A stretch of 37,103 nucleotides of DNA from a virus. Every line of letters starts with the position of its first letter. The first letter of the stretch is position 1. A program made the translations under genes and the position numbers. Shown one piece after another: positions 1 to 36,883 of this stretch. Location: UHGV virus genome UHGV-0194471; one strand, 5' to 3'. The notes under the pieces are model-generated. The model saw only the letters and a list, made by a program, of their open reading frames with translations, was not told the DNA's origin and searched no databases.

Positions 1-570
1 GATGCAGTAAATCCTGATAGATCCCCGTTAATATGCCATTTGGCGCAAATTGTTTTTTAATCCACTGCGTCACCTGACCGGTGGCAGAGTGCTGGGTTGC
101 GAGTAACATGCGTGAATCCTGGCGCGGGTTATGGATTTGTCGGGTAACCAGCAAGGATTGCGCCATCGCCTCACGGACCATGTAATCCGGCAAAAAACCA
201 ATTCCTTCACCTAAAATCTGGCACTGACATTTGGTGTTGAAATCGGGCACCAGAATCGATTCCTGCCCATGCAGCAACCAGCCTACTTTTTTATTAATCG
301 TATGCGCGGTGTCCTCCACCATGATATTAGGGTAGAGACGCAGCTGGCTTTCGGCGATCGGCTCCGGCACAAAGGCTAATGGGTGATCCGGGGCGATGGC
401 AAAAGCCCAGCGAATCGCGCCAATCTCCGTGTAATCAATGCCGCCACCGTCCAGCAGCGTGTCGGGTGCGCCGATAGCGATATTTGCCTGATTATTAATA
501 ATCGCATCCCAGACGCCGTTATACACTTCGGTGGTGACGGTAATCTGGCAGGTAGGAAACTGCTTTTTCA
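1..570 (-). pseudogene. 3' portion of host LysR-family regulator gene (substrate-binding domain), separated from its 5' portion by the prophage; runs off the window edge
   Basis: Minus-strand translation from 569-571 reads KKQFPTCQITVTTEVYNGVWDAIINNQANIAIG..., a LysR effector-domain pattern; it continues in frame from the N-terminal fragment at 36526..36883 (...LLQVLK | KQFP...). Confidence 0.7.
565..570. repeat. Left copy of target-site duplication (TTTTCA)
   Basis: Identical hexamer at 36526..36531; joining the two flanks restores a continuous LysR reading frame (gtg ctg aaa aag cag). Confidence 0.7.
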
Positions 571-620
571 TAATCAGTAGTGAGATAAACCCACCATCAT
601 CTGCACGATAATTATGGGAT
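571..620. repeat. Left-end terminal repeats, candidate transposase-binding sites (GAGATAAA, CGATAA)
   Basis: GATAAA sits at offset 13 from both inferred termini when the right end is reverse-complemented; CGATAA/GATAAA motifs recur at 36442..36525. Confidence 0.4.
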
Positions 621-676
621 TAGATGGGGTGAGGTGAGTTTTAACGGGACGATTTCTGTAATTGCTTTTCAGATAC

Positions 677-711
677 TGAAACGAGGCCAACATCATTACG
701 ACCTCGTTTCA
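677..711. other. 10-bp inverted repeat (TGAAACGAGG / CCTCGTTTCA, 15-nt loop) just beyond the mor-like stop
   Basis: Read directly in sequence; no clear U-run on the minus-strand transcript, so terminator function is uncertain. Confidence 0.4.
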
Positions 712-715
712 TTAA

Positions 716-1096
716 TCACTTCCGGGGTGATTTTACTGCTTCAGGTTCATCAATGATAGAGAATAATGGGAGCTGTCGGCGGGCGCTTTCAGAACGCTGG
801 ATCTTTTTCACCACTTTGTAGATCCACTGCAAAGTCAGGTTGTACTTCTTCGCCAGTTCGCGGTAGTTGCGTCCATCACACTCCTGCCAGATTTTATAGT
901 CCCGCGCCGATGTCATGAAGACCATGCCTTTGGGCAGGTAAATGGTTTGTCCGCCCCATGCCTGCATCATGTGATTAGCCACAGCGACGGCAATCTGTTC
1001 AGCGATATCATCTTCCATTCCAACCATTTCTTTCAATGTGTTTGCGACGTGGTGCGCAAGGTCAGCAAAGATTTCTGGCTGTTGCGGTTCTTTCAT
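716..1096 (-). CDS. Mor/C-family transcriptional activator (middle/late gene activator)
   Basis: C-terminal HTH pattern ...YLPKG...DYKIWQECDGRNYRELAKKYNLTLQWIYKVVKK typical of Mu Mor/C; start moved to the internal ATG preceded by GGGAGGGG, which overlaps the upstream stop as ATGA. Confidence 0.7.
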   Translation of the reverse strand: MKEPQQPEIFADLAHHVANTLKEMVGMEDDIAEQIAVAVANHMMQAWGGQTIYLPKGMVFMTSARDYKIWQECDGRNYRELAKKYNLTLQWIYKVVKKIQRSESARRQLPLFSIIDEPEAVKSPRK

Positions 1097-1497
1097 CTTC
1101 CCCTCCCGACACGTGCCAGCCATTTTTTCAGTTGTTCAATCACCTGGCTGGCCTGCTGATTGTTAAGCCACTCCAGCCGGGCGACGCCTGTCTGGCGTTG
1201 TACGAACTTATTTAACGCCGACAAACTGCCATCTCTGACCGTACCGCTGGAAGTCAGTTCCTGCCATAACGCGCGGATCATCGCAGACTGCTTATCATAG
1301 GAAGGAGGCTCTTTAGATGTGACTTTGAAGCCCTGTTTTTTCATCACAGCGAAAGCCTTAGCCAGTTGTGAGTCGCTCATTACCCGTAACGATTCACTGC
1401 CGCAGTGTGTTTTAAGTAATTGTCGATACGTAGCCTCATCCAGTCGCAGCTCTCGCCGGGCAACATGGATAACCCGCAATAATTGTGCTCTGTTCAT
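1093..1497 (-). CDS. GemA-like protein (Mu gp16 family)
   Basis: 134 aa, MNRAQLLRVIHVARRELRLDEATYRQLL... resembles Mu GemA; sits directly upstream of the mor-like gene as in Mu. Confidence 0.6.
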   Translation of the reverse strand: MNRAQLLRVIHVARRELRLDEATYRQLLKTHCGSESLRVMSDSQLAKAFAVMKKQGFKVTSKEPPSYDKQSAMIRALWQELTSSGTVRDGSLSALNKFVQRQTGVARLEWLNNQQASQVIEQLKKWLARVGRGR

Positions 1498-1551
1498 TCA
1501 TTCCTCCGTGAGGCGGTTATGACAGGCACAACCGCTGGATAATCAATGTGG

Positions 1552-1845
1552 CTACACGTCACCACATTGGCAGATCCCAACCATCCTTACGGTTAATACC
1601 GATGGCTCATTTGCGGGAGATATGCAGCTTTTATCGAGGCAGTAATCTTTGCCACGAGATCGGACAACCGCTGAATCATTATTGACGCTGGTTATTTTCC
1701 CTGTTTTTGTCGTTATTCTGATGCGAGTGTTACGGGCGCTCATAGATACTTGCTGCCAGGCAAAACTCACTTTGTCGCCAATGCGAAACGGTACTTCTTT
1801 CTCGGCATATTTCCCGCAGGCCGGGCATTTAACAAACATCATCAT
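1552..1845 (-). CDS. Small zinc-ribbon protein (CxxC...CxC), function unknown
   Basis: ORF with paired Cys motifs (KCPACG ... CQCG) in the early operon. Confidence 0.5.
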   Translation of the reverse strand: MMMFVKCPACGKYAEKEVPFRIGDKVSFAWQQVSMSARNTRIRITTKTGKITSVNNDSAVVRSRGKDYCLDKSCISPANEPSVLTVRMVGICQCGDV

Positions 1846-2107
1846 TTACTACCCCCAACCATTCAGCCAGTCGCGCCAGCTTTTTCGCTTTGCGATAATC
1901 GATTAGCTTTTCCATACCGTTCTGCCGGAACTGTTCGATCATGATTTCCACATCAGCCATTTCATCCGCCAGCACAGCTTCGTCACAGAAGCCTGTCAAA
2001 CCACGCGCGGTTGCGGCGCTGAGTTCGGCTGCTTCCTCGGCTAGCTTCGCCAGTTGTTTCTCCGGCCCCCACTTGCGTAAGGCTGCACGGTAGATAAGCG
2101 TTTTCAT
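1829..2107 (-). CDS. MazG-like nucleotide pyrophosphohydrolase domain protein
   Basis: 92 aa with EEAAELS ... DEMADVEIMIEQ pattern resembling the small all-alpha MazG/NTP-PPase fold. Confidence 0.45.
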   Translation of the reverse strand: MKTLIYRAALRKWGPEKQLAKLAEEAAELSAATARGLTGFCDEAVLADEMADVEIMIEQFRQNGMEKLIDYRKAKKLARLAEWLGVVNDDVC

Positions 2108-2313
2108 GCGCCTACCTCCGTTGCCGGGGTTAATTCCATAGTGGGAATAAAGGCGTTATAAGCCTGCTCGCAGTGCGGACAGAGCAAAATTAAATTTACG
2201 CACCACTCCTTATATTCATCAGTCTGCAATAAGCTTGCTTGTTGAAAATCCAGTTCAGTGACTTCTTTTTTGCAGTACACACATTTAATCGTCGCCATCT
2301 CACACCCCCGCAA
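2104..2313 (-). CDS. Small zinc-ribbon protein (CxxC x2), function unknown
   Basis: 69 aa with CVYCKK ... CPHCEQ; overlaps neighbouring genes in an operon-like arrangement. Confidence 0.5.
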   Translation of the reverse strand: MRGCEMATIKCVYCKKEVTELDFQQASLLQTDEYKEWCVNLILLCPHCEQAYNAFIPTMELTPATEVGA

Positions 2314-2917
2314 TATTCAGCACGACAGGCTGGTATTTATCGCTATCACCGACACGCTGATAAACCCGCACGTAACTTGTTGAGTTCACCACCTGCACCG
2401 ACTCGCCAATGGCCTCCATTGCCTTCAGCCAGCGTGGGTCGGTAATTTCATAGCGGCGCAGCGCCAGTACGCGCCCGGTGGAGATGTTGCCCTCTTTATC
2501 TTCTGCGAATGATTTCTCCACGATGACCTTCAGCTCTGGCGTGGCCTGTGCCGTCCACTCATGCAGGCACTCATCAATCAAGTTACGGGCGGCTTGTAAC
2601 CGTTCATCAAAGGCGATGTTTTCGGCAATCTGGCGCTGGATCTTGTAGCGACCATCAAATGAATGCAGGGTGATGTTGCCTTTCTTGCCTCCGGGGCGGG
2701 CATCATATTGTTCAACGGACAAATCAATAAACGCCTGTATATCGCCAAAACAGCGGTTTTTAAACTCAAGTAATTCAGCATTCATTTTCATTGCGTCGGC
2801 GACGATCTCCTTTACCAGCGCATCGCGTGCGCGGTCAATGGGCTTGATCATAGACTCGGGAACCAGACAACCTTTGGCGTCCTGCCAGTAACCTGCGGGG
2901 ATAGTTTTTTCAGTCAT
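2300..2917 (-). CDS. Conserved early-region protein of Mu-like phages (possibly DUF3164-type), function unknown
   Basis: 205-aa ORF directly downstream of the B-like gene; family name is from memory only. Confidence 0.45.
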   Translation of the reverse strand: MTEKTIPAGYWQDAKGCLVPESMIKPIDRARDALVKEIVADAMKMNAELLEFKNRCFGDIQAFIDLSVEQYDARPGGKKGNITLHSFDGRYKIQRQIAENIAFDERLQAARNLIDECLHEWTAQATPELKVIVEKSFAEDKEGNISTGRVLALRRYEITDPRWLKAMEAIGESVQVVNSTSYVRVYQRVGDSDKYQPVVLNIAGV

Positions 2918-2988
2918 AAAATAGTCTCCAGGGTGATTTCAGGGTGTGCGAAGCCTGCCGGGTTGACGGCATTTTTCTGCGACCTGAA

Positions 2989-3117
2989 TTAATTAAATAA
3001 GGCTATGAATATAAAAATCAGTGTAGTTATAGCGCTGGCCCATAATACAAAACGGTCAGCCAGCGATATCTTGCGGTATTGCATCACGTCCTTTCCGGTT
3101 AATTTGTGAAATACCAT
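2989..3117 (-). CDS. Candidate 42-aa hydrophobic peptide (not in the supplied ORF track)
   Basis: ATG at 3117 preceded by AAAGGAG 8 nt upstream; translation MVFHKLTGKDVMQYRKISLADRFVLWASAITTLIFIFIALFN has one predicted transmembrane helix; fills a 200-bp gap. Confidence 0.3.
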   Translation of the reverse strand: MVFHKLTGKDVMQYRKISLADRFVLWASAITTLIFIFIALFN

Positions 3118-3119
3118 TT

Positions 3120-4244
3120 TCACACTCCTTTAATCACATCCGCATTCACCACCGGCACGCCGATATCAGCGGCCAGATTCATTGCGGCGATAACCAGATT
3201 CCCCAGCGCCAGCGGATAAAGCAGACTGACGTCACCGCGTCGGGATGAATTACATAATCGGGCGCGGATAGCATCGGCGGTGCTATCATCCAGCACCTCG
3301 GAAACACCTTTCCCGGTACGCTGAAATTTGAACGCCAGAAACGCTTCCAGATAGTTATCCAGCGGCAGCAGTTCGACGACCTCGCAGCGCTGTACCACTT
3401 CGCGCACCTCCTGATTACGTTCAGAAAGTTTCAGCTTTAGCTCCGGCTGGCCAATCAACACCACCGACAGCAGCTTTTTAAAGCCGTCCTCCAGCTCAAA
3501 GAACCGCTTCAAATGCTTGAGCGTCGGCACCGGTAGCGAGTGCGCCTCTTCAATAACCAGACAATGTGAGAACCCGGCGCGGGCCGACTCTTTCAGCACC
3601 CGGTGCAACTGGCGGTAACGGGCCTCCTGCGAGCGTTTGACGTTCTCCAGCGGTGCGATGGTGTTGATGATGGCCTCGGCAATCGACGCCGCTTTCAGAG
3701 TTTTGCCTTTGGCGTCGTTGTCTTCCATCGCAATGATGTACGGTTCGATGAGGATAACTGGCGCGTTTTCACGGTTGATGCGATCAGCCAGGTCACGGCG
3801 TAGCGTGGTTTTCCCTGCGCCGGATTCGCCAACTACGGCGATAAATCCGCCATGTCGCGCGGTCTGATACAGTGCTTCACGCACGTAGCGGATATCTGGC
3901 GTGGTGAACACGTCGTCCGCACTCTGCATAACCTCATCGGCGAACGGGTCGCGGAACAACCCAAAATGCTTCTTCGCCGCTGGATTTAATACCTGTTTTG
4001 CCAGTAACATATTTTCGTCCTCACTGGATGATGTACCGGTGCAGGCGGTGGCCGCCGTCTGCGCCTCCTTCAGTTCAATACCTTTTTCTGCAAAAAATGT
4101 GCTGATGCGCTCCCGTAGTTCTTCTGTTTTCGGCCACAGGCCGTGATTAACCATCTGCGCGATAACCGCTGCGGAAACTCCGGTAGCCTGTGCTACTGCT
4201 GCCTGAGTGATGCCACGCTGGCGCAACTGTTGTTTAATCTGCAT
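3120..4244 (-). CDS. MuB-like transposition ATPase / target DNA activator
   Basis: N-terminal HTH, Walker A GESGAGKT and Walker B-like HCLVIEEAH; lies immediately downstream of the transposase as in Mu A-B. Confidence 0.8.
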   Translation of the reverse strand: MQIKQQLRQRGITQAAVAQATGVSAAVIAQMVNHGLWPKTEELRERISTFFAEKGIELKEAQTAATACTGTSSSEDENMLLAKQVLNPAAKKHFGLFRDPFADEVMQSADDVFTTPDIRYVREALYQTARHGGFIAVVGESGAGKTTLRRDLADRINRENAPVILIEPYIIAMEDNDAKGKTLKAASIAEAIINTIAPLENVKRSQEARYRQLHRVLKESARAGFSHCLVIEEAHSLPVPTLKHLKRFFELEDGFKKLLSVVLIGQPELKLKLSERNQEVREVVQRCEVVELLPLDNYLEAFLAFKFQRTGKGVSEVLDDSTADAIRARLCNSSRRGDVSLLYPLALGNLVIAAMNLAADIGVPVVNADVIKGV

Positions 4245-4253
4245 AACTCCCCC

Positions 4254-6008
4254 TTAACCGCCGACTACGTTCAGTTGCACTCGGGCGGTAAGCTGCTGCG
4301 CGGCGGCGTCCAGTTCTTCTTCCGCCACGCCTTCTGGCCAGCGTTTCACCAGTTCCTGATACAGTGCGACGTTCCATTCCGGCAACCGTGCTTTCAGCGC
4401 CTTCGCCGCCTCGACGTGAGTCAGACGCCGGGCTTCAACGCGTGGAGCGCGTACCGGGGAATCCTGACCACGACGCGGCAGGAACGCGGGCAGTTCGCTG
4501 TCGGTGATGGGTTTATACGGGTCAAGCCTGCCGCCGAACGGCAGCGCCTTCGCTTTACGCGCCGCAGCCGCGTCCGTCTCGTTATCTGTTCCGGTAACAA
4601 TCTGCTCAATCTGTTTAGCCGCAGTCTGCGCGGGTGTATCGGCGTGGCGCTTGTGATTCTGGCCCAGCACCGCCGCGCCTTCGGCAAAGCCGTATTCGTC
4701 CTTGCGGACTTCCTCCACCAGGTGAAAATACTCGTGGCCATCGTCACCGATGAGCACTACCTGCGCGGCATCGCTGCGCCACGGATTGCGGGTGATCATC
4801 AGTTTTTCACCCACCATCACATCTGGCACGGTGGAGACGTCGTATTCCGTACCCTGAAACGACACGCGCAGCTTCGGCGTTATCTTGCGGCTTTCCGGCG
4901 CGGCAACAGCCAGTTCGCGGCAGACCTCCACCGATGGCGCTTTGATAAGCTGCTGCGCGGTGATGGTCATCCAGACGTTACTACGCGACTTGCCGTGGCG
5001 GGTGTGAATCGCGGTGGCGTTGAAGTGCTGCCGCCACAGGCGCGCTTTGGCGTTCAGTTCCTCCAGGCTGTGAACCGGCTGGAACTTCAGCCCCGGTTCA
5101 AAGCGGCGTTCGATAATGTCGCGCGCCTTTTCCACCTGCCCGGTGGCGCGGGCGTTGTGGGCTTTATGCGCCACCACGTCAATGCCCAGCGAACGACAGA
5201 GGTTCTTCGTCATAGCGGCGGTGTTGGCCGAGCCGGGGTCGAGATACAACATATGCGGCACGCCGTGGAGCACATCCGCGCCGCCGCGCTCCTGCATGGC
5301 ATTGATGAGAACGGAACAGAGATTTTCGCCAGACTCCGCCCCCATCACGTATTCAACGTAGATCCAGCCGCTGGTATGGTCGGTCAGTTCATAGCTCCAT
5401 ACCCGGTCACTGGCGATACGTTGCAGGTTCTTCGGCTTGTTTTTGTAGAACGTCGCGCTGTCCATCACCTGTAACCCGCGCTGGCCGTTGCTGAGGTAGT
5501 ACAGCGTGCAGAGCGAGGCGTCGATTTCCCAGACGTGATTGGGGTGCAGACTGGCAAGCTCCGTCACTGGCGCGGGCTGGCTGAGTTGATCCGGGTGCAG
5601 GCCGTAGCCACGCAGCGCCCGGATGATGGTGCTTTCTGACAATGGCACCCACTCGCCGCTTTCCTCATCCAGCCGCCCGGCGTCAATCTCGCCGTTGGCG
5701 CGTAACATCTCCACGGCATCAATGACGGAATACAGGCGCTTGCCGTTCTTACGGGTGGCTTCCGTCAGCGTAGCGGAAATCATCACCGCCTCATCGCGGG
5801 TCAGCGCGGTTTTTCCGGCGTCGGTGCGGCGCTTGCGTTTATCGGTCACGGCAACCTCCTTTATTCTGCGTAACAGCGTGGCGCGGGACAGGCCAAGTTC
5901 CGCGCAGGCGGCAGTGTAGATTGCGCCGCGTGCGCCATGCCCGGCCTGCCGTGCAGCCTGAGCAACAGCAACTAAGCGTTCGGTCATGACGGCGCTCATG
6001 GTCAGCAT
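4254..6008 (-). CDS. Mu-family DDE transposase
   Basis: 584 aa with an integrase-type catalytic core (candidate DDE residues in WEIDAS, YLDPGS, QVEKARDIIERRFE); position upstream of the B-like ATPase. Confidence 0.8.
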   Translation of the reverse strand: MLTMSAVMTERLVAVAQAARQAGHGARGAIYTAACAELGLSRATLLRRIKEVAVTDKRKRRTDAGKTALTRDEAVMISATLTEATRKNGKRLYSVIDAVEMLRANGEIDAGRLDEESGEWVPLSESTIIRALRGYGLHPDQLSQPAPVTELASLHPNHVWEIDASLCTLYYLSNGQRGLQVMDSATFYKNKPKNLQRIASDRVWSYELTDHTSGWIYVEYVMGAESGENLCSVLINAMQERGGADVLHGVPHMLYLDPGSANTAAMTKNLCRSLGIDVVAHKAHNARATGQVEKARDIIERRFEPGLKFQPVHSLEELNAKARLWRQHFNATAIHTRHGKSRSNVWMTITAQQLIKAPSVEVCRELAVAAPESRKITPKLRVSFQGTEYDVSTVPDVMVGEKLMITRNPWRSDAAQVVLIGDDGHEYFHLVEEVRKDEYGFAEGAAVLGQNHKRHADTPAQTAAKQIEQIVTGTDNETDAAAARKAKALPFGGRLDPYKPITDSELPAFLPRRGQDSPVRAPRVEARRLTHVEAAKALKARLPEWNVALYQELVKRWPEGVAEEELDAAAQQLTARVQLNVVGG

Positions 6009-6301
6009 CCTTCCGGTAGTTCGGGAACTAACATCCAGTGGGTGATCTGTTTTGCCGGGTACGTTTCACTGGTGCAGTGAAACTCGCCATCAATATAGTT
6101 AGCGGTTTCCACGCCGTAGCCATCACAGACCAGCACAAGGTCATAGTCACCAGGCAGTTGTGCGTCAGTGGCTATCCACGGTGAGGCCAGCGCATCCTTA
6201 AAAGCGACTCTCAGCAGTCGGCCACCGAGGATATCGGCGTTAAAGTGGTAACTCGGCTCCTGCGGAGCCTTAGCGAAATCAATAACTAATGTGCGGATCA
6301 T
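6002..6301 (-). CDS. Hypothetical early protein
   Basis: 99-aa ORF whose stop overlaps the transposase start; no family recognised. Confidence 0.45.
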   Translation of the reverse strand: MIRTLVIDFAKAPQEPSYHFNADILGGRLLRVAFKDALASPWIATDAQLPGDYDLVLVCDGYGVETANYIDGEFHCTSETYPAKQITHWMLVPELPEGC

Positions 6302-7233
6302 GCGGCGTTCTCCTTATCGGTGGTCATCCAGTCCGGGCGTTCGATTTTAGGCGTGGGGTTTGTTACCCACTCCGGCGCGGCGTCACTGCGTGGTTCGACA
6401 GCAAGGCCAAACTCTTCACGCAGATAAACGGTGGCGCTGTCAATCTGGCATAACAGCCCGGTCATAAAGGCGTGAGGGTGCGTCTGAACCAGTGCCGAAT
6501 GATGTTGATTCAGGACGGTAAAAGCTTCGTGGAGCTTGCCGCGAATAATGGCCTCGGCTTCGAAGGCAATAGCCATGACTTCCTTGCGCAACTGCTCGTC
6601 CTCCACATCCGGGGGCGGCGGCGCGATGCGGGATTTTTTGGCAAGCTGGGTGGAGAGGTTGTCGATTTTGCTGTTCTTGTCAGCCAGAACGCGGCGCTGG
6701 GCGTCGGCGTCCTCGCGAGCTTCACGCAGGGCGGCGCGGAGTTCGCGACTGGTCATACGGTCGATATCGTCGAGGGTTAGCCCGGCAACGGTGCCGCCTT
6801 CGGTCAGGGCAGTGAGTTCGTCGTCATCTTCTGCCATTAACTCGAATAGTTTGGTTTTACCCAAATGTGCCAGCGCTGGCATATTTGATTTCAGCGCTGG
6901 AGATAAATATTTGGTTGATGCCTGCATCATCCTTACTGACGTGCGATATGGTAAGCCCAGTTCCTTTTCAATAAGTTCGATAAACTCCCCATGCGGCTCA
7001 TTCTCTTTCAGAATCACCAGGCGCTTACCCGCTTCCAGCATTGCCTCGGCGCTCTGCGACATATAAAACCGAGCCTCATGCACCACTCGGTCGCGCTCAT
7101 ACGGAAGGCCGTCGCCGAACTGCTGCATAATTTCGATGCGGTGTTCCGCCAGCGCGTTCAGGCTGACGTTCAGTTCAGTGTTCAGCGGTGCGTCCGGCAC
7201 CAGTTCAACAGGTGGTGATTTTTGACGTGCCAT
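6298..7233 (-). CDS. Hypothetical early protein (311 aa)
   Basis: Long ORF in the early operon with charged helical segments and a proline stretch; no family confidently recognised. Confidence 0.5.
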   Translation of the reverse strand: MARQKSPPVELVPDAPLNTELNVSLNALAEHRIEIMQQFGDGLPYERDRVVHEARFYMSQSAEAMLEAGKRLVILKENEPHGEFIELIEKELGLPYRTSVRMMQASTKYLSPALKSNMPALAHLGKTKLFELMAEDDDELTALTEGGTVAGLTLDDIDRMTSRELRAALREAREDADAQRRVLADKNSKIDNLSTQLAKKSRIAPPPPDVEDEQLRKEVMAIAFEAEAIIRGKLHEAFTVLNQHHSALVQTHPHAFMTGLLCQIDSATVYLREEFGLAVEPRSDAAPEWVTNPTPKIERPDWMTTDKENAA

Positions 7234-7244
7234 TAACTTGCTCC

Positions 7245-7544
7245 TTAGCGACTGCCAGCCAGCAACCGCTGATTCATTTCATTCAGCCTGTCCTGAGCGC
7301 GTGTGACTTCCGTCGCGTGGGCGTGGGCGATTTGCAGCATCGCCATACTCATGGCGAAGCGCCCATTTTCCAGCCGTTGTACCAGTCCCTCTTCGATCAG
7401 AGTGTCAGCGGCGCGGGTGATATTGGCCGGGGATTCATGCAACGCCGCCGCCAATTCGCCATTGGACAACCCAGTGAGCGAGTAGCCTTTCAGGGCTTTG
7501 AGTACGCGCAGGATACGTGCGCCGGAAGTAGAGGTGGGTTTCAT
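7245..7544 (-). CDS. Putative winged-helix DNA-binding protein
   Basis: ARILRVLKALKGYSLTGLSNGELAAALHESPANITRAADTLIEEGLVQRLENGRF resembles an IclR/MarR-type N-terminal HTH. Confidence 0.45.
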   Translation of the reverse strand: MKPTSTSGARILRVLKALKGYSLTGLSNGELAAALHESPANITRAADTLIEEGLVQRLENGRFAMSMAMLQIAHAHATEVTRAQDRLNEMNQRLLAGSR

Positions 7545-7780
7545 GCATGCATCTCCAGTGGTTGGACATGGCGGCTGATGTAGTGGTCAGAACAGGTGAT
7601 GTTGCCTGGATCGTCCGGGCCGTTCAGCCCGGCAAACTCATCAACCAGAAATACGCTATATGCGGATAATCCCTGCTGACGCGGAACGCGGCGAATAAAC
7701 GTGCCGTGGTATGGAGTTGATTGGCCAAATGAGGGCGTAATCAGTACGCGCTGGCTGGGGGTTAAATCGGTAGGTTTCAT
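7541..7780 (-). CDS. Hypothetical early protein
   Basis: 79-aa ORF overlapping its neighbour's start/stop. Confidence 0.4.
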   Translation of the reverse strand: MKPTDLTPSQRVLITPSFGQSTPYHGTFIRRVPRQQGLSAYSVFLVDEFAGLNGPDDPGNITCSDHYISRHVQPLEMHA

Positions 7781-7790
7781 TGCGCTCTCC

Positions 7791-8027
7791 TTAGTTAGGT
7801 TCGTGCAGGATGCCCGGCACGATCTCTTTGCCGATGGTGCGGGACAGCTCTTTCAGAATGCGAAACGTCAGCCGTCCACGCGGCAAATCCTGTTTACCCG
7901 CCCAGCGATCAACAGCTTGCGTAACCGTCCGGGGTTCGTAGCCGGTACTGATGGCGAACTGGCGAAAGTTGCTGCCCTGCTCAATCAGTCGCGCGTGGAT
8001 TTGGTGTTTGTTCATTAGTTTGTTCAT
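7791..8027 (-). CDS. Ner-like DNA-binding protein (early-operon regulator)
   Basis: 78 aa, resembles Mu Ner/Nlp family (…FAISTGYEPRTVTQAVDRW…); first gene of the leftward operon, divergent from the repressor; GAGGGAA precedes the ATG. Confidence 0.65.
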   Translation of the reverse strand: MNKLMNKHQIHARLIEQGSNFRQFAISTGYEPRTVTQAVDRWAGKQDLPRGRLTFRILKELSRTIGKEIVPGILHEPN

Positions 8028-8108
8028 TTGTTCCCTCTGAGCTATTATGTACTCAATTGGGTTTATTGTACGTACTCAAACGGGCAAGTCAACGACTAAT
8101 ATGCACAA
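8028..8108. promoter_or_regulatory. Divergent early/repressor promoter-operator region
   Basis: 81-bp AT-rich spacer between divergent ner-like and repressor genes with direct repeats GTACTCAA (twice) and TTGTAC. Confidence 0.5.
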
Positions 8109-8519: not shown

Positions 8520-8557
8520 AGTGTTCTCATTAAGAACAAAACATGAAGGACTATGTT

Positions 8558-9079: not shown

Positions 9080-9156
9080 ACATGTTGTAAACAAAACAAA
9101 AAAGCGTGCAGACAGCACGCATTTACTATCTAACTCTACTGAAGGTTTCAGATTCT

Positions 9157-11393: not shown

Positions 11394-11432
11394 ACCCCTT
11401 TAAAAGCCTTCCTGCCTACCATTCCGCACACT

Positions 11433-11454
11433 GCCTCCATCACCCAATGGAGGC
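11433..11454 (+). promoter_or_regulatory. Hairpin enclosing the Shine-Dalgarno of the holin-like gene
   Basis: GCCTCCAT-cacccA-ATGGAGGC, 8-bp stem; the GGAGG at 11449..11453 is in the 3' arm, 5 nt before ATG 11459. Confidence 0.4.
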
Positions 11455-28748: not shown

Positions 28749-28966
28749 TGGGCGGCTGGATTGAACATATCACCACCGAGGGCGAGCGCTGGGATAATCT
28801 GGCGTTCCTCTATTACGGCGATCCAATGGGCTATGAGCGCATCATTGTCGCTAACCCCCATATTGCGATCACGCCGACACTGGCCTCCGGGCTGCGGTTG
28901 CGTATTCCGGTGATCGGCCCGATGCAGGTGCATAACGTTGATGAGGTGCCGCCGTGGCTCAGGTAA
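28745..28966 (+). CDS. Tail protein X-like (LysM-like)
   Basis: 73 aa, …WDNLAFLYYGDP…ANPHIA…LASGLRLRIPV resembles P2 gpX. Confidence 0.55.
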   Translation: MMGGWIEHITTEGERWDNLAFLYYGDPMGYERIIVANPHIAITPTLASGLRLRIPVIGPMQVHNVDEVPPWLR

Positions 28967-30054
28967 ATGCCGTTATCACCCCCGTTTTCACCCTGTTTTA
29001 CGGGCAGAAAGATATCACTCACGATATTGCTCCTTTTGTCCTGAGCGTGACGTATACCGACAGTCTCAAGAGCGAATCGGATGAAATCGACGTGCAGGTG
29101 GAAGACACCGCCGGGCGCTGGCGCGAGGCGTGGTATCCGGGCAAAGGCGATATGCTGATGCTGAAGTTGGGCTATCAGGGCGAAGCGTTGCTGGACTGTG
29201 GAGCGTTCTCCATCGATGAGATTGAGCTGGGCGCACCGCCGGATACGGTATCCATTCGCGGCGTGGCGACGTCGGTCAACAGCGCTCTGCGTACCGCCTC
29301 CAGCGAGGGCTACGAAGAGACGACGCTGGATGCGATTGCCAGCCGTATCGCGCAGAAGCATGGTCTGAAGCTGGTCGGTCAGATAGAGCCGATTACCATT
29401 GACCGGGTGACGCAATACGCGGAAACCGACGTCGGTTTTCTGAAGCGGCTGGCGGGTGAGTATGGTTATGCGCTGAAAGTCACCACTGGCGAGCTGGTGT
29501 TTTCCCATCTGGCTACACTGCGAAGTAACGCGCCGGTGACGACGCTGACGCCGCAGGATGTAGCGCGCTGGTCGCTGCGCGATACCATCAACCGCATCTA
29601 TAAGGATGCAAAGGTGGCGCATCAGAAGAGTAAAGAGAAGACGCTGGTGACGTACCACGCCGACGGCCCGCCGACCACGGAGACGCGTGGTAAATCGACC
29701 AGCGCCGATACGCTCAAGGTCAATGCACGGGCGGCGGATCAGGGGACGGCGCAGGTGAAAGCCGAGGCGGCGCTGGATGACCATAACGAGTATCAGCAGA
29801 CCGGTTCGCTCTCGATGATGGGCAACACGCAGCTTATCGCCGGGAACAAAATCACTCTCGACGGGTTCGGCGTGCTCTCCGGGGAGTGGCTGATCACCAG
29901 CGCCCGTCACTCGTTTGACCGTTCATCGGGCTACAGCACCGAAATTGAGGTCGGACGTGGCCCGAAAACGGCCTCCGGCGGCGGGAAGAAGAAAAAACCG
30001 GATACGCTGACCGTCTATCACCCGGACGGCCCACCCACCCAGGAGAAAAAATGA
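28954..30054 (+). CDS. Tail protein, P2 gpD / Mu P-like
   Basis: 366 aa in the conserved position after the X-like gene. Confidence 0.6.
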   Translation: MAQVNAVITPVFTLFYGQKDITHDIAPFVLSVTYTDSLKSESDEIDVQVEDTAGRWREAWYPGKGDMLMLKLGYQGEALLDCGAFSIDEIELGAPPDTVSIRGVATSVNSALRTASSEGYEETTLDAIASRIAQKHGLKLVGQIEPITIDRVTQYAETDVGFLKRLAGEYGYALKVTTGELVFSHLATLRSNAPVTTLTPQDVARWSLRDTINRIYKDAKVAHQKSKEKTLVTYHADGPPTTETRGKSTSADTLKVNARAADQGTAQVKAEAALDDHNEYQQTGSLSMMGNTQLIAGNKITLDGFGVLSGEWLITSARHSFDRSSGYSTEIEVGRGPKTASGGGKKKKPDTLTVYHPDGPPTQEKK

Positions 30055-30542
30055 AAGGCGTCACCCGACAGACCGGGATTATCAGCGATATCGACGAGGT
30101 GAAGGTGTGCGTGCGCGTCACCCTGCCGGAATGCGACGATCTGCGCACCAACTGGCTCCCCATCCTGCAACGCAATACGCAGGACAATAAGGACTACTGG
30201 CTGCCGGATATCGGCGAGCAGGTGGAGGTGCTGCTGGATGATAACGGCGAGGATGGCGTGGTGCTGGGGGCGGTCTATTCGTCGGTGGATACGCCACCGG
30301 TGACGGACAAAGACAAGCGCTATGTGCGGTTCTCCGATAAGGCCGCGATTGAGTACGACCGCAAACAGCACCAGTTGACCATTAATGGCGGCATTGAAAA
30401 AATCGTGATTGAGGTGAAAACCAGCGTCAGCATCACCGCGCCGCAGGTGGTCATCACGGGTAATGTCCGCGTCACCGGCAATATCAGTGCGTCAGGCTCT
30501 ATCATCGACGCTGGCGGCAATACCAACCATCACTCTCATTAA
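30051..30542 (+). CDS. Baseplate spike / assembly protein V-like (Mu gp45-like)
   Basis: 163 aa, position within the baseplate cluster. Confidence 0.55.
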   Translation: MKGVTRQTGIISDIDEVKVCVRVTLPECDDLRTNWLPILQRNTQDNKDYWLPDIGEQVEVLLDDNGEDGVVLGAVYSSVDTPPVTDKDKRYVRFSDKAAIEYDRKQHQLTINGGIEKIVIEVKTSVSITAPQVVITGNVRVTGNISASGSIIDAGGNTNHHSH

Positions 30543-30588
30543 AGCGGTTTAATACCGCCACTTTAGCAACGGGGGCGACAATGCCCCC

Positions 30589-30948
30589 ATGAGCACACAA
30601 TCCCATCCTTTAAATCTGCACTGGCAACCGGCCCTGAAACGCGACGGCGAGTACGTCTGTGGGCTGGAGGATATCAGCCAGGCCGTTCACATCATTCTGC
30701 GCACGCCGCGCGGTAGCGATCCCCATCGCCCCTTTTTCGGTAGCGACCTGTGGCGCTATATCGACTGGCCTGCTGAACGGGCGATTCCCCATGTGGTGCG
30801 TGAGTCGGTGGAGGCTATCCGCCACTGGGAGCCGCGCTGCAAATTTCTCAAAGTGGTGCCGGAACTGGACGGCGAACATCTCACGCTGCGCATCCAGTGG
30901 CGCGCCGCCGATGGCGTTATTAATGAAACGGAGGTGGTATGGCGTTAG
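30589..30948 (+). CDS. Baseplate protein, GPW/gp25 family
   Basis: 119 aa with …ILRTPRGSDPHRPFFGSDLWRYID…, typical of gp25/GPW. Confidence 0.6.
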   Translation: MSTQSHPLNLHWQPALKRDGEYVCGLEDISQAVHIILRTPRGSDPHRPFFGSDLWRYIDWPAERAIPHVVRESVEAIRHWEPRCKFLKVVPELDGEHLTLRIQWRAADGVINETEVVWR

Positions 30949-32054
30949 CTGAACCCGATTTTATCGACCGCGACCCGGCGCAAATCACCAGTGAGATGAT
31001 TGCGCAGTATGAAGCGGTGAGCGGTAAAACGCTCTATCCGGCGCAGGCGGAGCGGCTGCTGATTGATGTTATTGCCTATCGTGAAAATCTGCTGCGCATC
31101 GGCATTCAGGAGGCGGCAAAGCAGAATCTGGTGGCGTTTTCCCGTGCGCCAATGCTCGATTACCTCGGCGAACTGGTGGGCGTGAAGCGCCTGCCTGCGC
31201 AGGCGGCACAGACCACGTTGCGGTTTTCCGTTGCCAGCGCGCAAAAGCGCAATGTGCTGATCCCGGAGGGCACCCGCGCCAGCGCGGCCAACAGCGTGAT
31301 GTTTGCCACCGATGACGATGTGCTGCTGCCAGCCGGAAGTCTGAGCGTCGATGTCACGGCCACATGTACCACCGCTGGCGTTGTGGGTAATGGCTGGCAA
31401 CCGGCGCAGATTAGCGCACTGGTGGACAGCGTGGCAGGTGTCGATTTGCAGGTGACGAACATTACCGCGTCCGGCGGCGGCTGCGCCGATGAAAGCGACG
31501 ACGCCCTGCGCGAGCGTATCCGGCTGGCTCCTGAAAGTTTCAGTAACGCGGGGAGTTATGGCGCATACCGCTTTCATGCGCTGTCAGTCAGCCAGGCGAT
31601 TATCGACGTGGCCATCCTCGGCCCGGATGAGGGGCTGGATGAAGGTTGCGTGGAGATTTACCCGCTGACGCAGGACGGTCTGCCGGGCGATGAGTTGCTG
31701 GCACAGGTGGTGCAGGATGTCAGTAAAGAGAAGAAACGCCCGTTGACCGATAAGGTAAGCGCGAAGAAACCACTGCGCGTGGCATATCAGATTAACGCGC
31801 AACTCACGCTATTCACTAAAGCCGATCAGGACTCGACGCTGCTGGCCGCGCGTAAGGCCATCGCCGACTGGACGGCAGAGCGCGAGCGCCATCTGGGGCG
31901 GGATATCGTCCCCAATCAAATCATCAAAGTGTTGCAGGTGGCGGGTGTCTATGACGTGGCGCTGGAAACACCTGCCAAACGAGTGCTCGCGGCACATGAG
32001 TGGGCGCAGTGTACCTCGATTGATGTGACCATCGCCGGGGTGAGCGATGGATAA
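30939..32054 (+). CDS. Baseplate J-like protein (Mu gp47-like)
   Basis: 371 aa following the gp25-like gene. Confidence 0.6.
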   Translation: MALAEPDFIDRDPAQITSEMIAQYEAVSGKTLYPAQAERLLIDVIAYRENLLRIGIQEAAKQNLVAFSRAPMLDYLGELVGVKRLPAQAAQTTLRFSVASAQKRNVLIPEGTRASAANSVMFATDDDVLLPAGSLSVDVTATCTTAGVVGNGWQPAQISALVDSVAGVDLQVTNITASGGGCADESDDALRERIRLAPESFSNAGSYGAYRFHALSVSQAIIDVAILGPDEGLDEGCVEIYPLTQDGLPGDELLAQVVQDVSKEKKRPLTDKVSAKKPLRVAYQINAQLTLFTKADQDSTLLAARKAIADWTAERERHLGRDIVPNQIIKVLQVAGVYDVALETPAKRVLAAHEWAQCTSIDVTIAGVSDG

Positions 32055-32766
32055 GTTACCGCTTCAACCGCCGCTCGCCGGGGATGAACGCTTTACCCGG
32101 CTGGCAAATCTTGCCGCTGAACGCTTCGCACAACTCGATCTGACCGCGCTTCTGATTTACCTGGTGGATCTGGTGGATGCCACGGCGCTGCCGTCGCTGG
32201 CAGAACAGTTCCACGTTCAGGGGCTGGAAGGCTGGCTGTTTGCCCGCGATGAGCGACAAAAGCGCGATCTGATCAAGCAGGCCATTGAGCTGCACCGCTA
32301 TCGCGGTACGCCGTGGGCAGTGCGTCAGGTACTGAAGATTCTGGCGTTGGACGGCGATATCAGCGAGTGGTTTGAGTATGGCGGTAAGCCGTACTTTTTC
32401 CGCATGGATGTCACGCTTGAGACGCGCGGGCTGACTGAGGATGAATTTAACGCGCTGATTGTGCTGATCCATGAGTACAAGAACGTCCGCTCAAAGCTGG
32501 AGATGCTGACTATCTGGCTGATTAACCAGAGCCAGATCCCGGTTATCGCCAGTGCTGTTCAGGGCGGCGAGATTGCTACCGTTCTGCCGTGGATTGCGGA
32601 GAGCGTGAGTCAGTCGTCTGCGGTTTATCTGGCGACGGAGTGTTTGAGTGCAGAGGTGGTAACGGTGTTGCCTCCGCTGCATGGCAATGTTGAGCAGACC
32701 AGCGTTATGAGTGTTGGAGCGGGCTGCTGGAGTATTGAGTTTGTCACTGTTTACCCGGAGGAGTAA
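32047..32766 (+). CDS. Tail protein I-like (P2 gpI / Mu gp48-like)
   Basis: 239 aa, …ATALPSLAEQFHVQGLEGW… pattern; lies before the tail fibre. Confidence 0.55.
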   Translation: MDKLPLQPPLAGDERFTRLANLAAERFAQLDLTALLIYLVDLVDATALPSLAEQFHVQGLEGWLFARDERQKRDLIKQAIELHRYRGTPWAVRQVLKILALDGDISEWFEYGGKPYFFRMDVTLETRGLTEDEFNALIVLIHEYKNVRSKLEMLTIWLINQSQIPVIASAVQGGEIATVLPWIAESVSQSSAVYLATECLSAEVVTVLPPLHGNVEQTSVMSVGAGCWSIEFVTVYPEE

Positions 32767-34466
32767 TGGCGAGTGAATTTTTTACCATTTTAACCGCCGC
32801 TGGCCGCGCGAAGATTGCTGCGGCGCTGGCGGAACAAAAGCAGATAGTGCTGCAAACAATGGTCGTTGGCGACGGCGGCGGGCAGTATGCCGAACCGAAA
32901 GAGAGCCAGACAAAGGTGGTGCGTGAAGTCTGGCGCGGGTCACTGAATACGCTGAAAATCGCCCCGGAAAACCCGGCGTGGGTGATTGCCGAGGCGGTAC
33001 TGCCGGAAGCGAAAGGCGGCTGGTATATCCGCGAGGTGGGATTGCTGGATATGGACGGCGTGCTGATTGCCATCGGCAAGTTCCCGGAAACCTATAAGCC
33101 GAAGCTGCCTGCCGGGGCCAGTAAGCAAATTGTGATCCGCGCTGTGATGGAAGTGACGAACGCGGCGGCGGTAACGCTGATGGTTGATCCGTCGCTGGTG
33201 ATGGCAACGGTAGATTATGTGGACTCCAGTATTGAAGAGCACGAAAGATCACATAATCACCCGGACGCAACGCTGACGCAGAAAGGCTTTACGCAGCTTA
33301 ACAGCTCCACCAATAGCACGCTGGAAACGCAGGCAGCAACGCCGAAGGCGGTGAAGGCGGCGATGGATAAGGCGAATGAGGCACTGGAAAAAGCTGGGGC
33401 TGATAAAGCGCATAAACATCCGTGGGCCGATATTACCGGGGTGCCGGATGGGACAACGGCGCAGAAAGGGGTTGTGAAGCTTAATAGCTCAACGAACAGT
33501 ACCAGTACGACGGAGGCTGCGACACCGAGTGCGGTTAAGGCGGCATATGACCTGGCGAATGGTAAGGCGGCGGGGAGCCATAAACATGCCTGGGGCGATA
33601 TTACCGGGGTACCGGATGGCACTACGGCGCAAAAAGGGATCGTAAAGCTCAACAGCGCGACGAACAGCACCAGTACTACCGAAGCGGCCACGCCCGGCGC
33701 AGTGAAGGCGGCGTATGACCTGGCGAACGGGAAAGCGGCTTCCAGCCATACTCACGCATGGAGTCAGATTACCGGCGTACCGGATGCAACTACAGCGCAA
33801 AAAGGGGTTGTGAAGCTTAATAGCGCGACGAACAGTACCAGTACGACTGAAGCCGCAACGCCGAGCGCGGTTAAGGCGGCGTATGACAAGGCGAATACAG
33901 CAATCTCCAGTTTTGCTCTTTTCACGTCGAATGGGACGTTTACGGTGCCAGTCGGGGTAACGAAAGTGATGGTGGAAATGATTGGAGGTGGAGGTGGTGG
34001 CGGCGGCGGTGGTGTGGGTGGTGGTGAGCGAATTGGTTATCCGACAGCAGGTAAACCATCACTTTTTGTTCAAGGGATTGTTGCTGTGAACTCTGGACAA
34101 AATGTAACCGTCACAGTCGGCGGAGGCGGTGTTGGGGGATCATCAAAAGTAGATACTGGTGGTGGTTCGATGACCGGGAGTAATGGGTACGCCGGAGGAA
34201 ACTCAATTTTCTTAACGCTCACTTCTGTTGGTGGTAGCGGCGGCGGCGGTGCATTGCCAGATTCTGGTCCTGGCAACGCATTAAATGAGCCAGGTTCTGA
34301 TTCAACGCATGGCTATGGCGGGGGGACTAAGTATAACTCGCAGAAAAATGCCGTAGGTTATGGTTCGAGTGGTGCGGCTGGTACCTCTAAAGGCGTCAGA
34401 ACTGTTGAAGGGGACTCTACAGCAGGTGGCAATGGTGCTTCAGGTTTTGTCAGAATATGGTGGTAA
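32766..34466 (+). CDS. Tail fibre protein with tandem repeats and Gly-rich C-terminal domain
   Basis: 566 aa; conserved N-terminal baseplate-attachment region; five ~40-aa repeats; C-terminus with poly-Gly runs and lower GC. Confidence 0.7.
   Translation: MASEFFTILTAAGRAKIAAALAEQKQIVLQTMVVGDGGGQYAEPKESQTKVVREVWRGSLNTLKIAPENPAWVIAEAVLPEAKGGWYIREVGLLDMDGVLIAIGKFPETYKPKLPAGASKQIVIRAVMEVTNAAAVTLMVDPSLVMATVDYVDSSIEEHERSHNHPDATLTQKGFTQLNSSTNSTLETQAATPKAVKAAMDKANEALEKAGADKAHKHPWADITGVPDGTTAQKGVVKLNSSTNSTSTTEAATPSAVKAAYDLANGKAAGSHKHAWGDITGVPDGTTAQKGIVKLNSATNSTSTTEAATPGAVKAAYDLANGKAASSHTHAWSQITGVPDATTAQKGVVKLNSATNSTSTTEAATPSAVKAAYDKANTAISSFALFTSNGTFTVPVGVTKVMVEMIGGGGGGGGGGVGGGERIGYPTAGKPSLFVQGIVAVNSGQNVTVTVGGGGVGGSSKVDTGGGSMTGSNGYAGGNSIFLTLTSVGGSGGGGALPDSGPGNALNEPGSDSTHGYGGGTKYNSQKNAVGYGSSGAAGTSKGVRTVEGDSTAGGNGASGFVRIWW
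33280..33900 (+). repeat. Five tandem ~120-nt coding repeats in the tail fibre gene
   Basis: Repeated peptide …TAQKGVVKLNS(S/A)TNSTSTTEAATP(S/G)AVKAAYD(L/K)AN…. Confidence 0.7.
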
Positions 34467-34469
34467 CAC

Positions 34470-35072
34470 ATGAAATATGCGTATTTTGAACCCTCATCAA
34501 TGAAGGTTTTAGACTGGCTGGATACCGAACAATTATCCTTTGTTTTGCCTGACAGTGTTGTTTCGGTAACTGATGAGCAATGGTGTTATCGTGATCGTGA
34601 ATTCTGGGTCAATATTTCAACCACAGAAATCATCACAACACCTCCACCCGGTGATTTTTATCGGCTTGATGGTGATAAGTGGGTGTATGACGCAACCAGC
34701 TATACTGCTGCGCTAGACGGTGCTAAGTCACTAGTTGTTAAGGCAATCAAGGCGCTACGCGATGAAGTCACTGCCGATTATATCATTATCGGCGACTATC
34801 ACTTTCACAGCGATGCCAGCAGTCGTATCCAGCAAATGTCACTCACCAGGATGGGGCAAACGAAGCAAATCCCCAAAGGCTTAATGTGGCAGACCAAAAA
34901 CCTCGGACTTCTCGAGCTAACCAATGAAATCGCGGCGCAGTTTGAGTCCATTACAATGGATCACGATATGCGCCTCTTTGCCAATGCCCAGCGACATATT
35001 GCCGCCGTTGAGGCGCTGGAAGATATCCTGGCAGTTCAGGAGTATGACTACTCTACGGGGTGGCAACCATGA
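34470..35072 (+). CDS. Tail fibre assembly protein
   Basis: 200 aa immediately downstream of the fibre gene; stop overlaps the next start. Confidence 0.55.
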   Translation: MKYAYFEPSSMKVLDWLDTEQLSFVLPDSVVSVTDEQWCYRDREFWVNISTTEIITTPPPGDFYRLDGDKWVYDATSYTAALDGAKSLVVKAIKALRDEVTADYIIIGDYHFHSDASSRIQQMSLTRMGQTKQIPKGLMWQTKNLGLLELTNEIAAQFESITMDHDMRLFANAQRHIAAVEALEDILAVQEYDYSTGWQP

Positions 35073-35521
35073 AGCCGGTGTATCTGGCGTTCTATAAAGG
35101 GCGAGCCGATCATCATGGGTTCGCACGTCTTTCCGACTGGCTGACGCGGCTGGTGACGCGGGGTGAGTATTCTCACTGCGAGCTGGCTGTTGACCAGGGT
35201 AACGGCGAGTTTCTTTGTTATTCGTCGTCGGTGCGTGACAAGGGGGTGCGCTGTAAGCAAATGCCGCTGCCACTCGATAAATGGGATCTTATCGCGCTAA
35301 ATGCGCTACCAACCAGTGTGGAGCAGTTCTTCCGTCGAAACGACGCCATGAAATATGACTGGCTGGGGGCTGTGGGATTCGTTGTTTTTAATCGTGGACG
35401 GGAGAACAAATATTTCTGTAGCGAGTTTTGCGCAGATTTTCTTGGACTGGTCGATAGCTGGCGTTATTCACCCAATATGCTCCACGCGCTGGCCAGCAGT
35501 ATTCAGACTATGAAGTTATAA
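35069..35521 (+). CDS. Cys/His-rich protein of unknown function
   Basis: 150 aa with six Cys (YSHCE, FLCYSS, VRCKQ, FCSEFC); ATG 35069 preceded by GGGGTGG and overlapping the upstream stop. Confidence 0.5.
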   Translation: MKPVYLAFYKGRADHHGFARLSDWLTRLVTRGEYSHCELAVDQGNGEFLCYSSSVRDKGVRCKQMPLPLDKWDLIALNALPTSVEQFFRRNDAMKYDWLGAVGFVVFNRGRENKYFCSEFCADFLGLVDSWRYSPNMLHALASSIQTMKL

Positions 35522-35534
35522 GGGAAACAGCGAC

Positions 35535-35621
35535 CAGAGTCAGGCGGTCACCTGACTCTGACCAGCTAACCCGCAGGAAGTGTCTGCGAGCCGCCCAGGG
35601 CTGCCACTGATGGCCATCAGT
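35535..35621 (+). promoter_or_regulatory. Two palindromic elements upstream of the dam gene
   Basis: Hairpin CAGAGTCAGG-cggtca-CCTGACTCTG (35535..35560) and a perfect 16-bp palindrome ACTGATGGCCATCAGT (35606..35621), ~47 bp before the dam ATG. Confidence 0.4.
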
Positions 35622-35667
35622 CCAATAAGCCTAACAGTTTTTCACATACTGAAAAAGGTTTGCAGAA

Positions 35668-36441
35668 ATGAAAACATTACCCATTATTCCGTGGCCCGGC
35701 GGTAAGCGTCGTCTGGCCAAAAAGTTATTACCGTTATTTCCTGAGCACCAGTGTTATGTAGAGCCATTCTGCGGCGGTGCAGCCTTGTATTTCATGAAGG
35801 AGCCGGTTGAAGCTGAAGTCCTGAACGATATCAACGGCGAACTGGTGAATCTGTACCGTGTGGTTAAAAATCATCTTGAAGAGTTTGTGCGCCAGTTCAA
35901 GTGGGCGTTGAGCAGCAGGCAGATTTTTGAATGGTCGAAAATGACCATCCCGGAGACGCTAACTGATATTCAGCGTGCAGCGCGGTTTTATTATCTCCAG
36001 AAGCAATCATTCGGAGGGAAAGTGGAATCACAGACGTATGGAACGGCGACCACTTCTGCACCACGGCTTAATCTGCTAAGGCTGGAAGAGGAGTTGAGCG
36101 CCGCCCATTTGCGGCTATCACGCACGTTTGTAGAACATTTACCGTGGCGTACCTGCATTGAGAAGTATGATCGCCCGCACACACTGTTCTATTGCGATCC
36201 CCCGTATTGGGGAACGGAGGGCTACGGTGTTGAATTTGGACTGGAGCAGTACACCCAACTTGCAGAGTTGGCCAGAACGATAAAAGGCAGGATGTTGATC
36301 AGTGTGAACGATATCCCGGAGATGCGTGAAACCTTTGCGGACTTGTCGATTGATACGGTAGATATTCGCTATACGTTGAGCGGTGGGCCTAATGCTAATC
36401 GCTCGAAAGTCAGCCGTGAGCTGGTCATTCGTAACTGGTAA
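35668..36441 (+). CDS. dam: DNA N6-adenine methyltransferase (Dam-like)
   Basis: FCGGAA (AdoMet-binding motif I-like) and DPPY catalytic motif; 257 aa; last gene before the prophage right end. Confidence 0.8.
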   Translation: MKTLPIIPWPGGKRRLAKKLLPLFPEHQCYVEPFCGGAALYFMKEPVEAEVLNDINGELVNLYRVVKNHLEEFVRQFKWALSSRQIFEWSKMTIPETLTDIQRAARFYYLQKQSFGGKVESQTYGTATTSAPRLNLLRLEEELSAAHLRLSRTFVEHLPWRTCIEKYDRPHTLFYCDPPYWGTEGYGVEFGLEQYTQLAELARTIKGRMLISVNDIPEMRETFADLSIDTVDIRYTLSGGPNANRSKVSRELVIRNW

Positions 36442-36525
36442 AGTGGAATTCTTTTGCAATAGGTGAAAAAAGTCGCAGCGCGATTTATCTCGCAGATTCA
36501 GGCGAATTTATCGCGCGCGGCTTTA
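36442..36525. repeat. Right-end terminal repeats, candidate transposase-binding sites
   Basis: Reverse complement contains GCGATAAATTCGC and GAGATAAATCGCG, matching the GATAAA motifs at the left end at the same offset from the terminus. Confidence 0.4.
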
Positions 36526-36883
36526 TTTTCAGCACCTGTAATAAGCGTGCGGTGTGTTTGGGCGTATAAAGCAGCTGATTAATACAAATTCGCACACGCG
36601 CTTCTATGCCCTGCGAAATAGTATCGATACTGCGTTTAATGGTATGAAAATCATTCAGCAGGTCGGTAGCTTTGCGGAAAAAATAACGCCCGGACTCCGT
36701 TAACTCAATGCTGCGGGTACTGCGAGTGAACAGCACCACATCCAGCCCCGTCTCCATACGTTTAATGGTGTAGCTAATGGCGGAAGTGGTTAAACCCAAC
36801 TCTTCTGCGGCTTTACTGAAGCTGCCAAAACGCGCAGCGGTAGTAAATGCCAACAGATTCTCTTCGGTAAAAATTGAGTTCAT
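36485..36883 (-). pseudogene. 5' portion of host LysR-family regulator gene (HTH domain), fused to prophage-end sequence
   Basis: N-terminal LysR HTH (…FSKAAEELGLTTSAISYTIKRMETGLDVVLFTR…); the host-derived reading frame ends at the junction near 36526 and the last 13 codons (IKPRAINSPESAR) are read from prophage DNA. Confidence 0.7.
36526..36531. repeat. Right copy of target-site duplication (TTTTCA)
   Basis: Identical to 565..570; host LysR sequence resumes here. Confidence 0.7.

Follow-up and report, generated by a model that had tools for sequence, protein, structure and literature searches.

Background

Tn552 is a small transposon rather than a phage. A Tn552-related transposase and an inverted early operon have been described for the BcepMu/B3 group of transposable phages (PMC5977238; PMC2628397), and the TnpA proteins of B3 and BcepMu are Tn552-related rve-type DDE transposases (PMC2628397; PMC8705779). 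Termini of the form TG...CA have been called characteristic of this group (PMC2628397; PMC8705779). The chemistry of DDE transposition has been described for Mu (PMC8705779). Mu duplicates 5 base pairs (bp) of its target whereas B3 is reported to duplicate 6 bp, and a 6-bp repeat has been described as the footprint of B3/Tn552-family transposases (PMC8705779). TA-TA ends have been reported for prophages of Leptospira, and their existence in other bacteria "remains to be investigated" (PMC8705779). The window analysed here, which is the whole 37,103-nucleotide (nt) stretch of the viral genome UHGV-0194471, carries an apparently intact transposable prophage of 35,955 bp (571-36525) inside the yahB gene (b0316) of Escherichia coli. 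YahB is an uncharacterised transcription factor of the LysR family (PMC8464067; PMC9068703). The prophage is almost certainly a temperate phage of the BcepMu/B3 group that was integrated into codon 119/120 of yahB by DDE transposition.

The prophage resembles BcepMu (Bcepmuvirus) and phiE255 in having Mor at the left end, an early operon opposite to the late genes and a size of about 36 kb. However, it has no nucleotide-level similarity to BcepMu, whose ends start with TG (TGAAG...) instead of the TA found at both ends here and whose right-end cargo is an acyltransferase instead of a Dam methylase. It shares with B3 (Beetrevirus) the 6-bp duplication, the inverted early operon (PMC8705779; PMC5977238) and homologous ends, but B3 has TG...CA ends and a Pseudomonas host. 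Mor, GemA, Mu gp27, the Mu portal, Mu F, a transposase paired with an ATPase, random insertion and a short duplication are all in common with Mu. In contrast, the duplication of Mu is 5 bp long, MuA has no detectable similarity to TnpA, and the inverted early operon and the TA...TA ends set the present phage apart. According to their published description, the TA-TA prophages of Leptospira (WETA1 type; PMC8705779) have TA ends, a B3/Tn552-type transposase and a duplication of 6 bp, but they belong to a distant host phylum. The relatedness of TnpA to the Tn552 family is likewise taken from the literature (PMC2628397; PMC8705779).

The closest sequenced phages are PhiKM, KP12 and Phi06_2974 B of E. 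coli and Klebsiella, which show patches of about 77% nucleotide identity and the same end register. Their ends are nevertheless of the TG...CA type (TGATTAG...GCGCATCA), only 10-13% of the genome can be aligned at the nucleotide level, and the accessory genes differ. A nucleotide search of the phage collection revealed no close sequenced phage, the best match covering 13% at about 77% identity. Of 5,426 complete E. coli genomes, 639 carry PhiKM-type prophages, which have a tnpA about 75% identical and TG...CA ends, with up to 3 copies per genome. Such prophages disrupt housekeeping genes, for example hybA and wcaJ.

The prophage splits yahB

On the minus strand, positions 36883 to 36526 encode residues 1-119 of YahB, and phage-encoded codons then lead to a stop at 36485. 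The same protein goes on from 570 to 1 (...KKQFPTCQITV...) and leaves the window. When 1-570 is joined to 36532-37103 with a single TTTTCA, the resulting 1,142 nt align in one piece over 100% of their length, with at most 99.2% identity, to yahB-yahC in 5,067 of the 5,426 complete E. coli genomes, where the median number of matches is one place per genome. The joined flanks encode a protein that differs from WP_001084388.1 (YahB, 310 amino acids (aa)) only by A81T over the 307 visible residues, and the neighbours pdeL and yahC confirm the pdeL-yahB-yahC context. An initial annotation, made from the sequence of this window, had described a prophage that is flanked by a TTTTCA direct repeat and splits one LysR gene whose frame is restored by joining the flanks. 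The repeat is present at both junctions, and the rest of this description is borne out with yahB as the gene. Alignment of the flanks to uninterrupted alleles, proposed there as a check, was carried out: exactly one TTTTCA lies between the 44-nt junction flanks in two uninterrupted genomes, and the duplication is 6 bp long. The two hexamers at these fixed junctions would match by chance with a probability of 1/4096.

The open reading frame (ORF) of 132 aa that spans the right junction is recorded in 32 blocks of public assemblies and metagenomes, from which 24 contigs were read. This indicates that the insertion is real, is carried by a lineage and is not an assembly artefact of the window. 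A LysR_substrate gene of 198 aa has been called in another assembly with the same yahB insertion.

The HTH_1 and LysR_substrate domains fall on separate fragments of yahB. The insertion parts the N-terminal helix-turn-helix domain of YahB, which binds DNA, from its effector-binding domain, and normal YahB function is therefore most likely abolished. Truncated YahB products may be made. An in-frame ATG arises on the minus strand at the left junction (568-573), where the A of the phage end meets the TG of the host hexamer (MKKQFPT...). This ATG heads a 198-aa ORF for the effector-binding domain of YahB, which lies downstream of the phage Mor gene on the same strand. Read-through expression of this ORF is conceivable. 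A scan for promoters and terminators around the left junction gave only chance-level hits.

Independent insertions and the length of the duplication

Six independent insertions, some of this lineage and some of relatives, were compared, and every one has a 6-bp duplication. Besides TTTTCA in yahB, which is single-copy at the empty site, GCTTCC flanks a relative that lies between grxA and ybjC in the complete genomes of E. coli A35 and OkiPb01694. This relative is about 95% identical, as measured over the left-end region, and has the same ends (TAATCAG...GGCTTTA). When its flanks are joined around a single GCTTCC, the resulting 388 nt match thousands of uninterrupted genomes at 100% identity. 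Two further sites of the same phage were revealed by searches for proteins exactly identical to Mor and Dam. GGCGAT flanks it on one contig of GCA_025306795.1 in an ABC permease gene (empty site, 400/400), and GCACCG flanks it in an SLC13 permease gene, where the joined junctions restore the gene (400/400). In relatives of 75% identity, AGTAAC is duplicated in hybA and CATAGC in wcaJ, and one-copy joins restore full-length reading frames. Thus, uninterrupted genomes served to verify the empty site in all four cases from the TA-TA lineage, and frame restoration served for hybA and wcaJ. Scans of IMG/VR with both end sequences returned the known insertion sites and no new one.

Directly outside the left phage end, the TA-TA lineage has a different base at each of its four sites (A, C, T and G). 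Because this base varies, it must be derived from the host, and it is neither phage sequence nor a coincidence. The TTTTCA repeat is therefore a true 6-bp target-site duplication, as in B3; the duplication length of BcepMu is known from secondary sources and from B3. Copies of the phage at other sites, among them the one flanked by GGCGAT, show only 1-2 mismatches to the window in 2-3 kb. Such near-identity suggests recent activity, and the prophage is presumably still active.

Mechanism and alternative explanations

In the proposed mechanism, TnpA would join each 3'-OH end of the phage to one of two target phosphates that lie 6 bp apart, and gap repair would then copy the hexamer to leave TTTTCA on each side. 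Transposition is supported by the DDE transposase and its AAA+ partner, by the homology of the terminal repeats, by the unrelated sequences of the target sites and by a duplication that is always 6 bp long. Lysogenic integration of Mu is non-replicative. Because a target duplication does not tell the modes of integration apart, only one half of the "replicative/transpositional" integration proposed in the initial annotation can be kept: the DDE transposase, the varied sites and the 6-bp duplications support transposition, but replicative integration is unsupported.

The same annotation had suggested that the repeat is a 5-bp duplication of the Mu type and that its sixth base is coincidental. 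Mu itself makes 5 bp (PMC8705779), and about 44% of insertions with such a duplication would by chance show one more matching base on either side. However, six independent insertions all show exactly 6 bp with the phage ends in a fixed register, for which the chance is about 0.44^6 = 0.007, and under a 5-bp duplication the terminal base of the phage would have to differ between sites (A, C, T and G before TAATCAG). Furthermore, a single 6-bp copy is present at every empty site checked for the TA-TA lineage (four of four), and the transposase is not MuA. A 5-bp duplication is thus very unlikely, and this suggestion is rejected. Alternatively, the right end of the phage could be placed at ...GGCTTTATTTTCA, which would provide a canonical 3'-CA at this end and turn the right TTTTCA into phage sequence, leaving no target duplication. 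Such a placement is hardly credible, because GGCTTTA is followed by GCTTCC, GGCGAT or GCACCG at three other sites, those hexamers are duplicated at the opposite junction and single-copy in the empty site, and the left end would remain TA.

Short direct repeats also flank prophages inserted by integrases, and TTTTCA might accordingly be the att core of a site-specific insertion. However, no integrase was detected beside either end, where the end-proximal genes encode Mor and the Dam methylase, and the same phage is found at unrelated sites with unrelated 6-bp repeats. Together with the DDE transposase and AAA+ partner that the phage encodes, this makes site-specific integration extremely improbable. 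It is equally far-fetched that the LysR fragments are independent genes, an outcome that the initial annotation had named as speaking against its own proposal, or that the junction is an assembly chimera. Nothing beyond the a priori possibility favours either, the collinear intact yahB in 5,067 complete genomes contradicts independent genes, and the junction ORF recurs in 32 blocks of independent assemblies and metagenomes (24 contigs read).

Several points weigh against transposition into yahB and its consequences as set out here. The TA...TA termini break the TG...CA hallmark of the family. The left and right junctions at the GCACCG site come from different assemblies, and a second copy of yahB elsewhere in the source genome would lie beyond what the window can show. 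Transposition, loss of YahB function and inducibility are predictions from sequence.

TA termini

The terminal dinucleotide is TA at both ends of the prophage (571-572 and 36524-36525), and the transferred 3' ends are therefore ...TA and not ...CA. Few features of DDE elements are as conserved as the terminal CA. Over their first 20 nt, both ends align in the same register with the termini of BcepMu, B3 and the relatives from E. coli, and all these comparators start with TG. They have in common a conserved G[TC]G[AC]GATA motif at end positions 10-17 and a second copy about 23 nt further inward, and these end repeats are presumably TnpA-binding sites. The relative between grxA and ybjC also has TA at both ends. 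It can be argued that such ends are functional, since a near-identical TA-TA phage occupies three E. coli sites and the 95% relative a fourth.

Among species-representative genomes of gamma- and beta-proteobacteria, 80 loci that encode TnpA relatives were surveyed by a position-weight scan downstream of Mor. About 40 loci had a recognisable left end, and all of these begin with TG. The closest TnpA relative among the species representatives (88%) belongs to Lelliottia wanjuensis, where a remnant prophage with an internal deletion in the early genes has a degenerate left end that cannot be scored. A text search of the literature found TA-TA ends reported for Leptospira prophages and no other report. 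Because the nearest relatives are all TG...CA, the TA ends probably arose independently of the Leptospira elements. On balance, the evidence leans towards a recently active E. coli lineage of the BcepMu/B3 type in which both termini have switched from TG...CA to TA...TA, independently of the TA-TA prophages of Leptospira.

I208L and K302R are the only TnpA positions that are kept in at least 43 of 44 TG-type sequences yet differ in both TA-type sequences. Residue 208 adjoins the invariant E207, and residue 302 is near E293, E300 and E304. A tie between these substitutions and the TA ends is only a lead, with a single lineage behind it. That an enterobacterial member of the group has TA...TA termini is a modest novelty that can be checked, and the insertion itself is ordinary.

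Transposase and family membership

TnpA is 76% identical to its counterparts in KP12 and PhiKM, 68-69% to those in BcepMu (gp09) and phiE255 and 59% to that in B3 (tblastn, 96% of length). No MuA Pfam domains were detected in TnpA at E <= 0.001, and a phmmer search of PDB chains (E <= 1) found neither MuA nor another transposase of solved structure; TnpB gave generic P-loop matches only. D163, D257 and E293 are the probable catalytic residues of TnpA, being invariant acidic residues whose spacing suggests a DDE triad. As in the relatives, tnpA is immediately followed by tnpB.

The features of the BcepMu/B3 group that are present include TnpA homology, an adjacent AAA+ TnpB, Mor, GemA, the inverted early operon and the 6-bp duplication. 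The 5'-TG...CA-3' termini are absent, but only one base per end differs and the remainder of the ends is homologous. Two features of Mu proper, a MuA-family transposase and a 5-bp target duplication, are also absent. By these sequence features, the prophage is a BcepMu/B3-type transposable phage with a predicted Mu-like lifestyle and an ordinary new member of an already known group.

Gene content and relatives

The features of the window are listed in Table 1. The early genes (716-8027) are on the minus strand and the late genes run on the plus strand from 8109, an inverted early operon of B3-like organisation, as described for B3-type phages (PMC5977238). The candidate lysogeny repressor is assigned by its position, divergent from the early operon, and a lysis gene (SLT transglycosylase) follows it on the plus strand. 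The head/tail block has Pfam matches to Phage_Mu_Gp27, Terminase_6N, Portal_Mu, Phage_Mu_F, Phage_tail_S, Phage_cap_E and Phage_sheath_1, and its tube protein (23756-24280) is named after the RefSeq annotation of the 95% relative.

Table 1 Features of the window, their coordinates and the evidence on which each assignment is based
Feature	Coordinates	Strand	Evidence and remarks
yahB 3' part, codon 119/120 to beyond the window edge	1..570	-	LysR substrate-binding domain; translation; matches intact YahB once joined
Left TTTTCA, 6-bp target-site duplication	565..570		Single copy at empty site
Prophage	571..36525	+	Ends 5'-TAATCAG...GGCTTTA-3'; ORFs all appear uninterrupted; identical ends at four different host sites
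Left terminal region, two putative TnpA-binding repeats	571..613	+	GTGAGATAAAC at end positions 10-20, GCACGATAATT at about 33-43
Mor-family late transcription activator	716..1123	-	Pfam PF08765, E = 1.7e-39
GemA-like protein	1093..1497	-	Pfam PF06252, E = 5.1e-35
DUF3164 protein	2300..2917	-	Pfam PF11363, E = 5.2e-82; conserved in early regions of examined relatives
TnpB-like AAA+ ATPase (predicted transposition target-binding protein)	3120..4244	-	Pfam AAA_22, E = 2e-20
TnpA, DDE transposase of BcepMu/B3 (Tn552-related) type, 584 aa	4254..6008	-	tblastn; Pfam rve, 30.1 bits
DUF3102 protein, upstream of tnpA	6298..7233	-	Pfam PF11300; equivalent position in relatives
Candidate lysogeny repressor, HTH_3/CI-repressor-like	8109..8519	+	Pfam HTH_3, E = 4.7e-08; Phage_CI_repr
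Head/tail morphogenesis block	13679..24280	+	Mu gp27-like, large terminase, Mu-type portal, Mu F-like, virion morphogenesis, capsid, sheath, tube
P2-like tail, baseplate and fibre genes	25057..35521	+	Pfam PhageMin_Tail, Phage_GPD, Baseplate_J, DUF4376; RefSeq annotation of 95% relative
Dam-type N6-adenine DNA methyltransferase, right-most gene	35668..36441	+	Pfam PF02086, E = 1.5e-28; PADLOC MTase_II, E = 6e-109
Right terminal region, two putative TnpA-binding repeats	36483..36525	-	GCGCGATAAAT and GCGAGATAAAT, inward from the end
yahB 5' part, residues 1-119, HTH_1 + 13 phage-encoded codons	36485..36883	-	132-aa fusion ORF; Pfam HTH_1
Right TTTTCA, 6-bp target-site duplication	36526..36531		Single copy at empty site

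An accessory block (8543-11393) between the repressor and lysis genes contains a 178-aa ORF without family match, a 402-aa ORF that matched nothing in Pfam or PADLOC, and a homologue (E = 6e-74) of NA37, the 37-kDa nucleoid-associated protein. This block is common to the A35 relative and absent from PhiKM-like prophages. PADLOC detected the methyltransferase but no defence system among the accessory genes. The right-end cargo varies, from the Dam-type methyltransferase here to Mom and Com in the 95% relative (A35 and OkiPb01694); the Mom/Com genes (adenine methylcarbamoylation) are located at 2988-3879 of the A35 locus stretch. The prophage between grxA and ybjC is intact in OkiPb01694, whereas the A35 copy has several annotated pseudogenes, including those for TnpB, the tape measure protein and gpD, which could reflect decay in one lineage or sequencing errors.

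Significance

For annotation, the 6-bp repeat should be regarded as the footprint of a B3/BcepMu-type transposase and not as a noisy 5-bp repeat of Mu, and the exact boundaries of the prophage are 571 and 36525. Lineages with this insertion are natural disruption mutants of yahB, whose product is a regulator of unknown function. Of wider interest, for transposition biology, are only the TA...TA termini. Whether TA-TA transposable prophages exist outside Leptospira had been asked (PMC8705779), and the phage described here occupies three E. coli sites, with its 95% relative at a fourth. If the switch of termini is true, this lineage would offer a genetically tractable E. coli system in which to study the handling of a non-CA 3' terminus by a DDE transposase, and I208L and K302R of TnpA, beside invariant acidic residues, would be the candidates.

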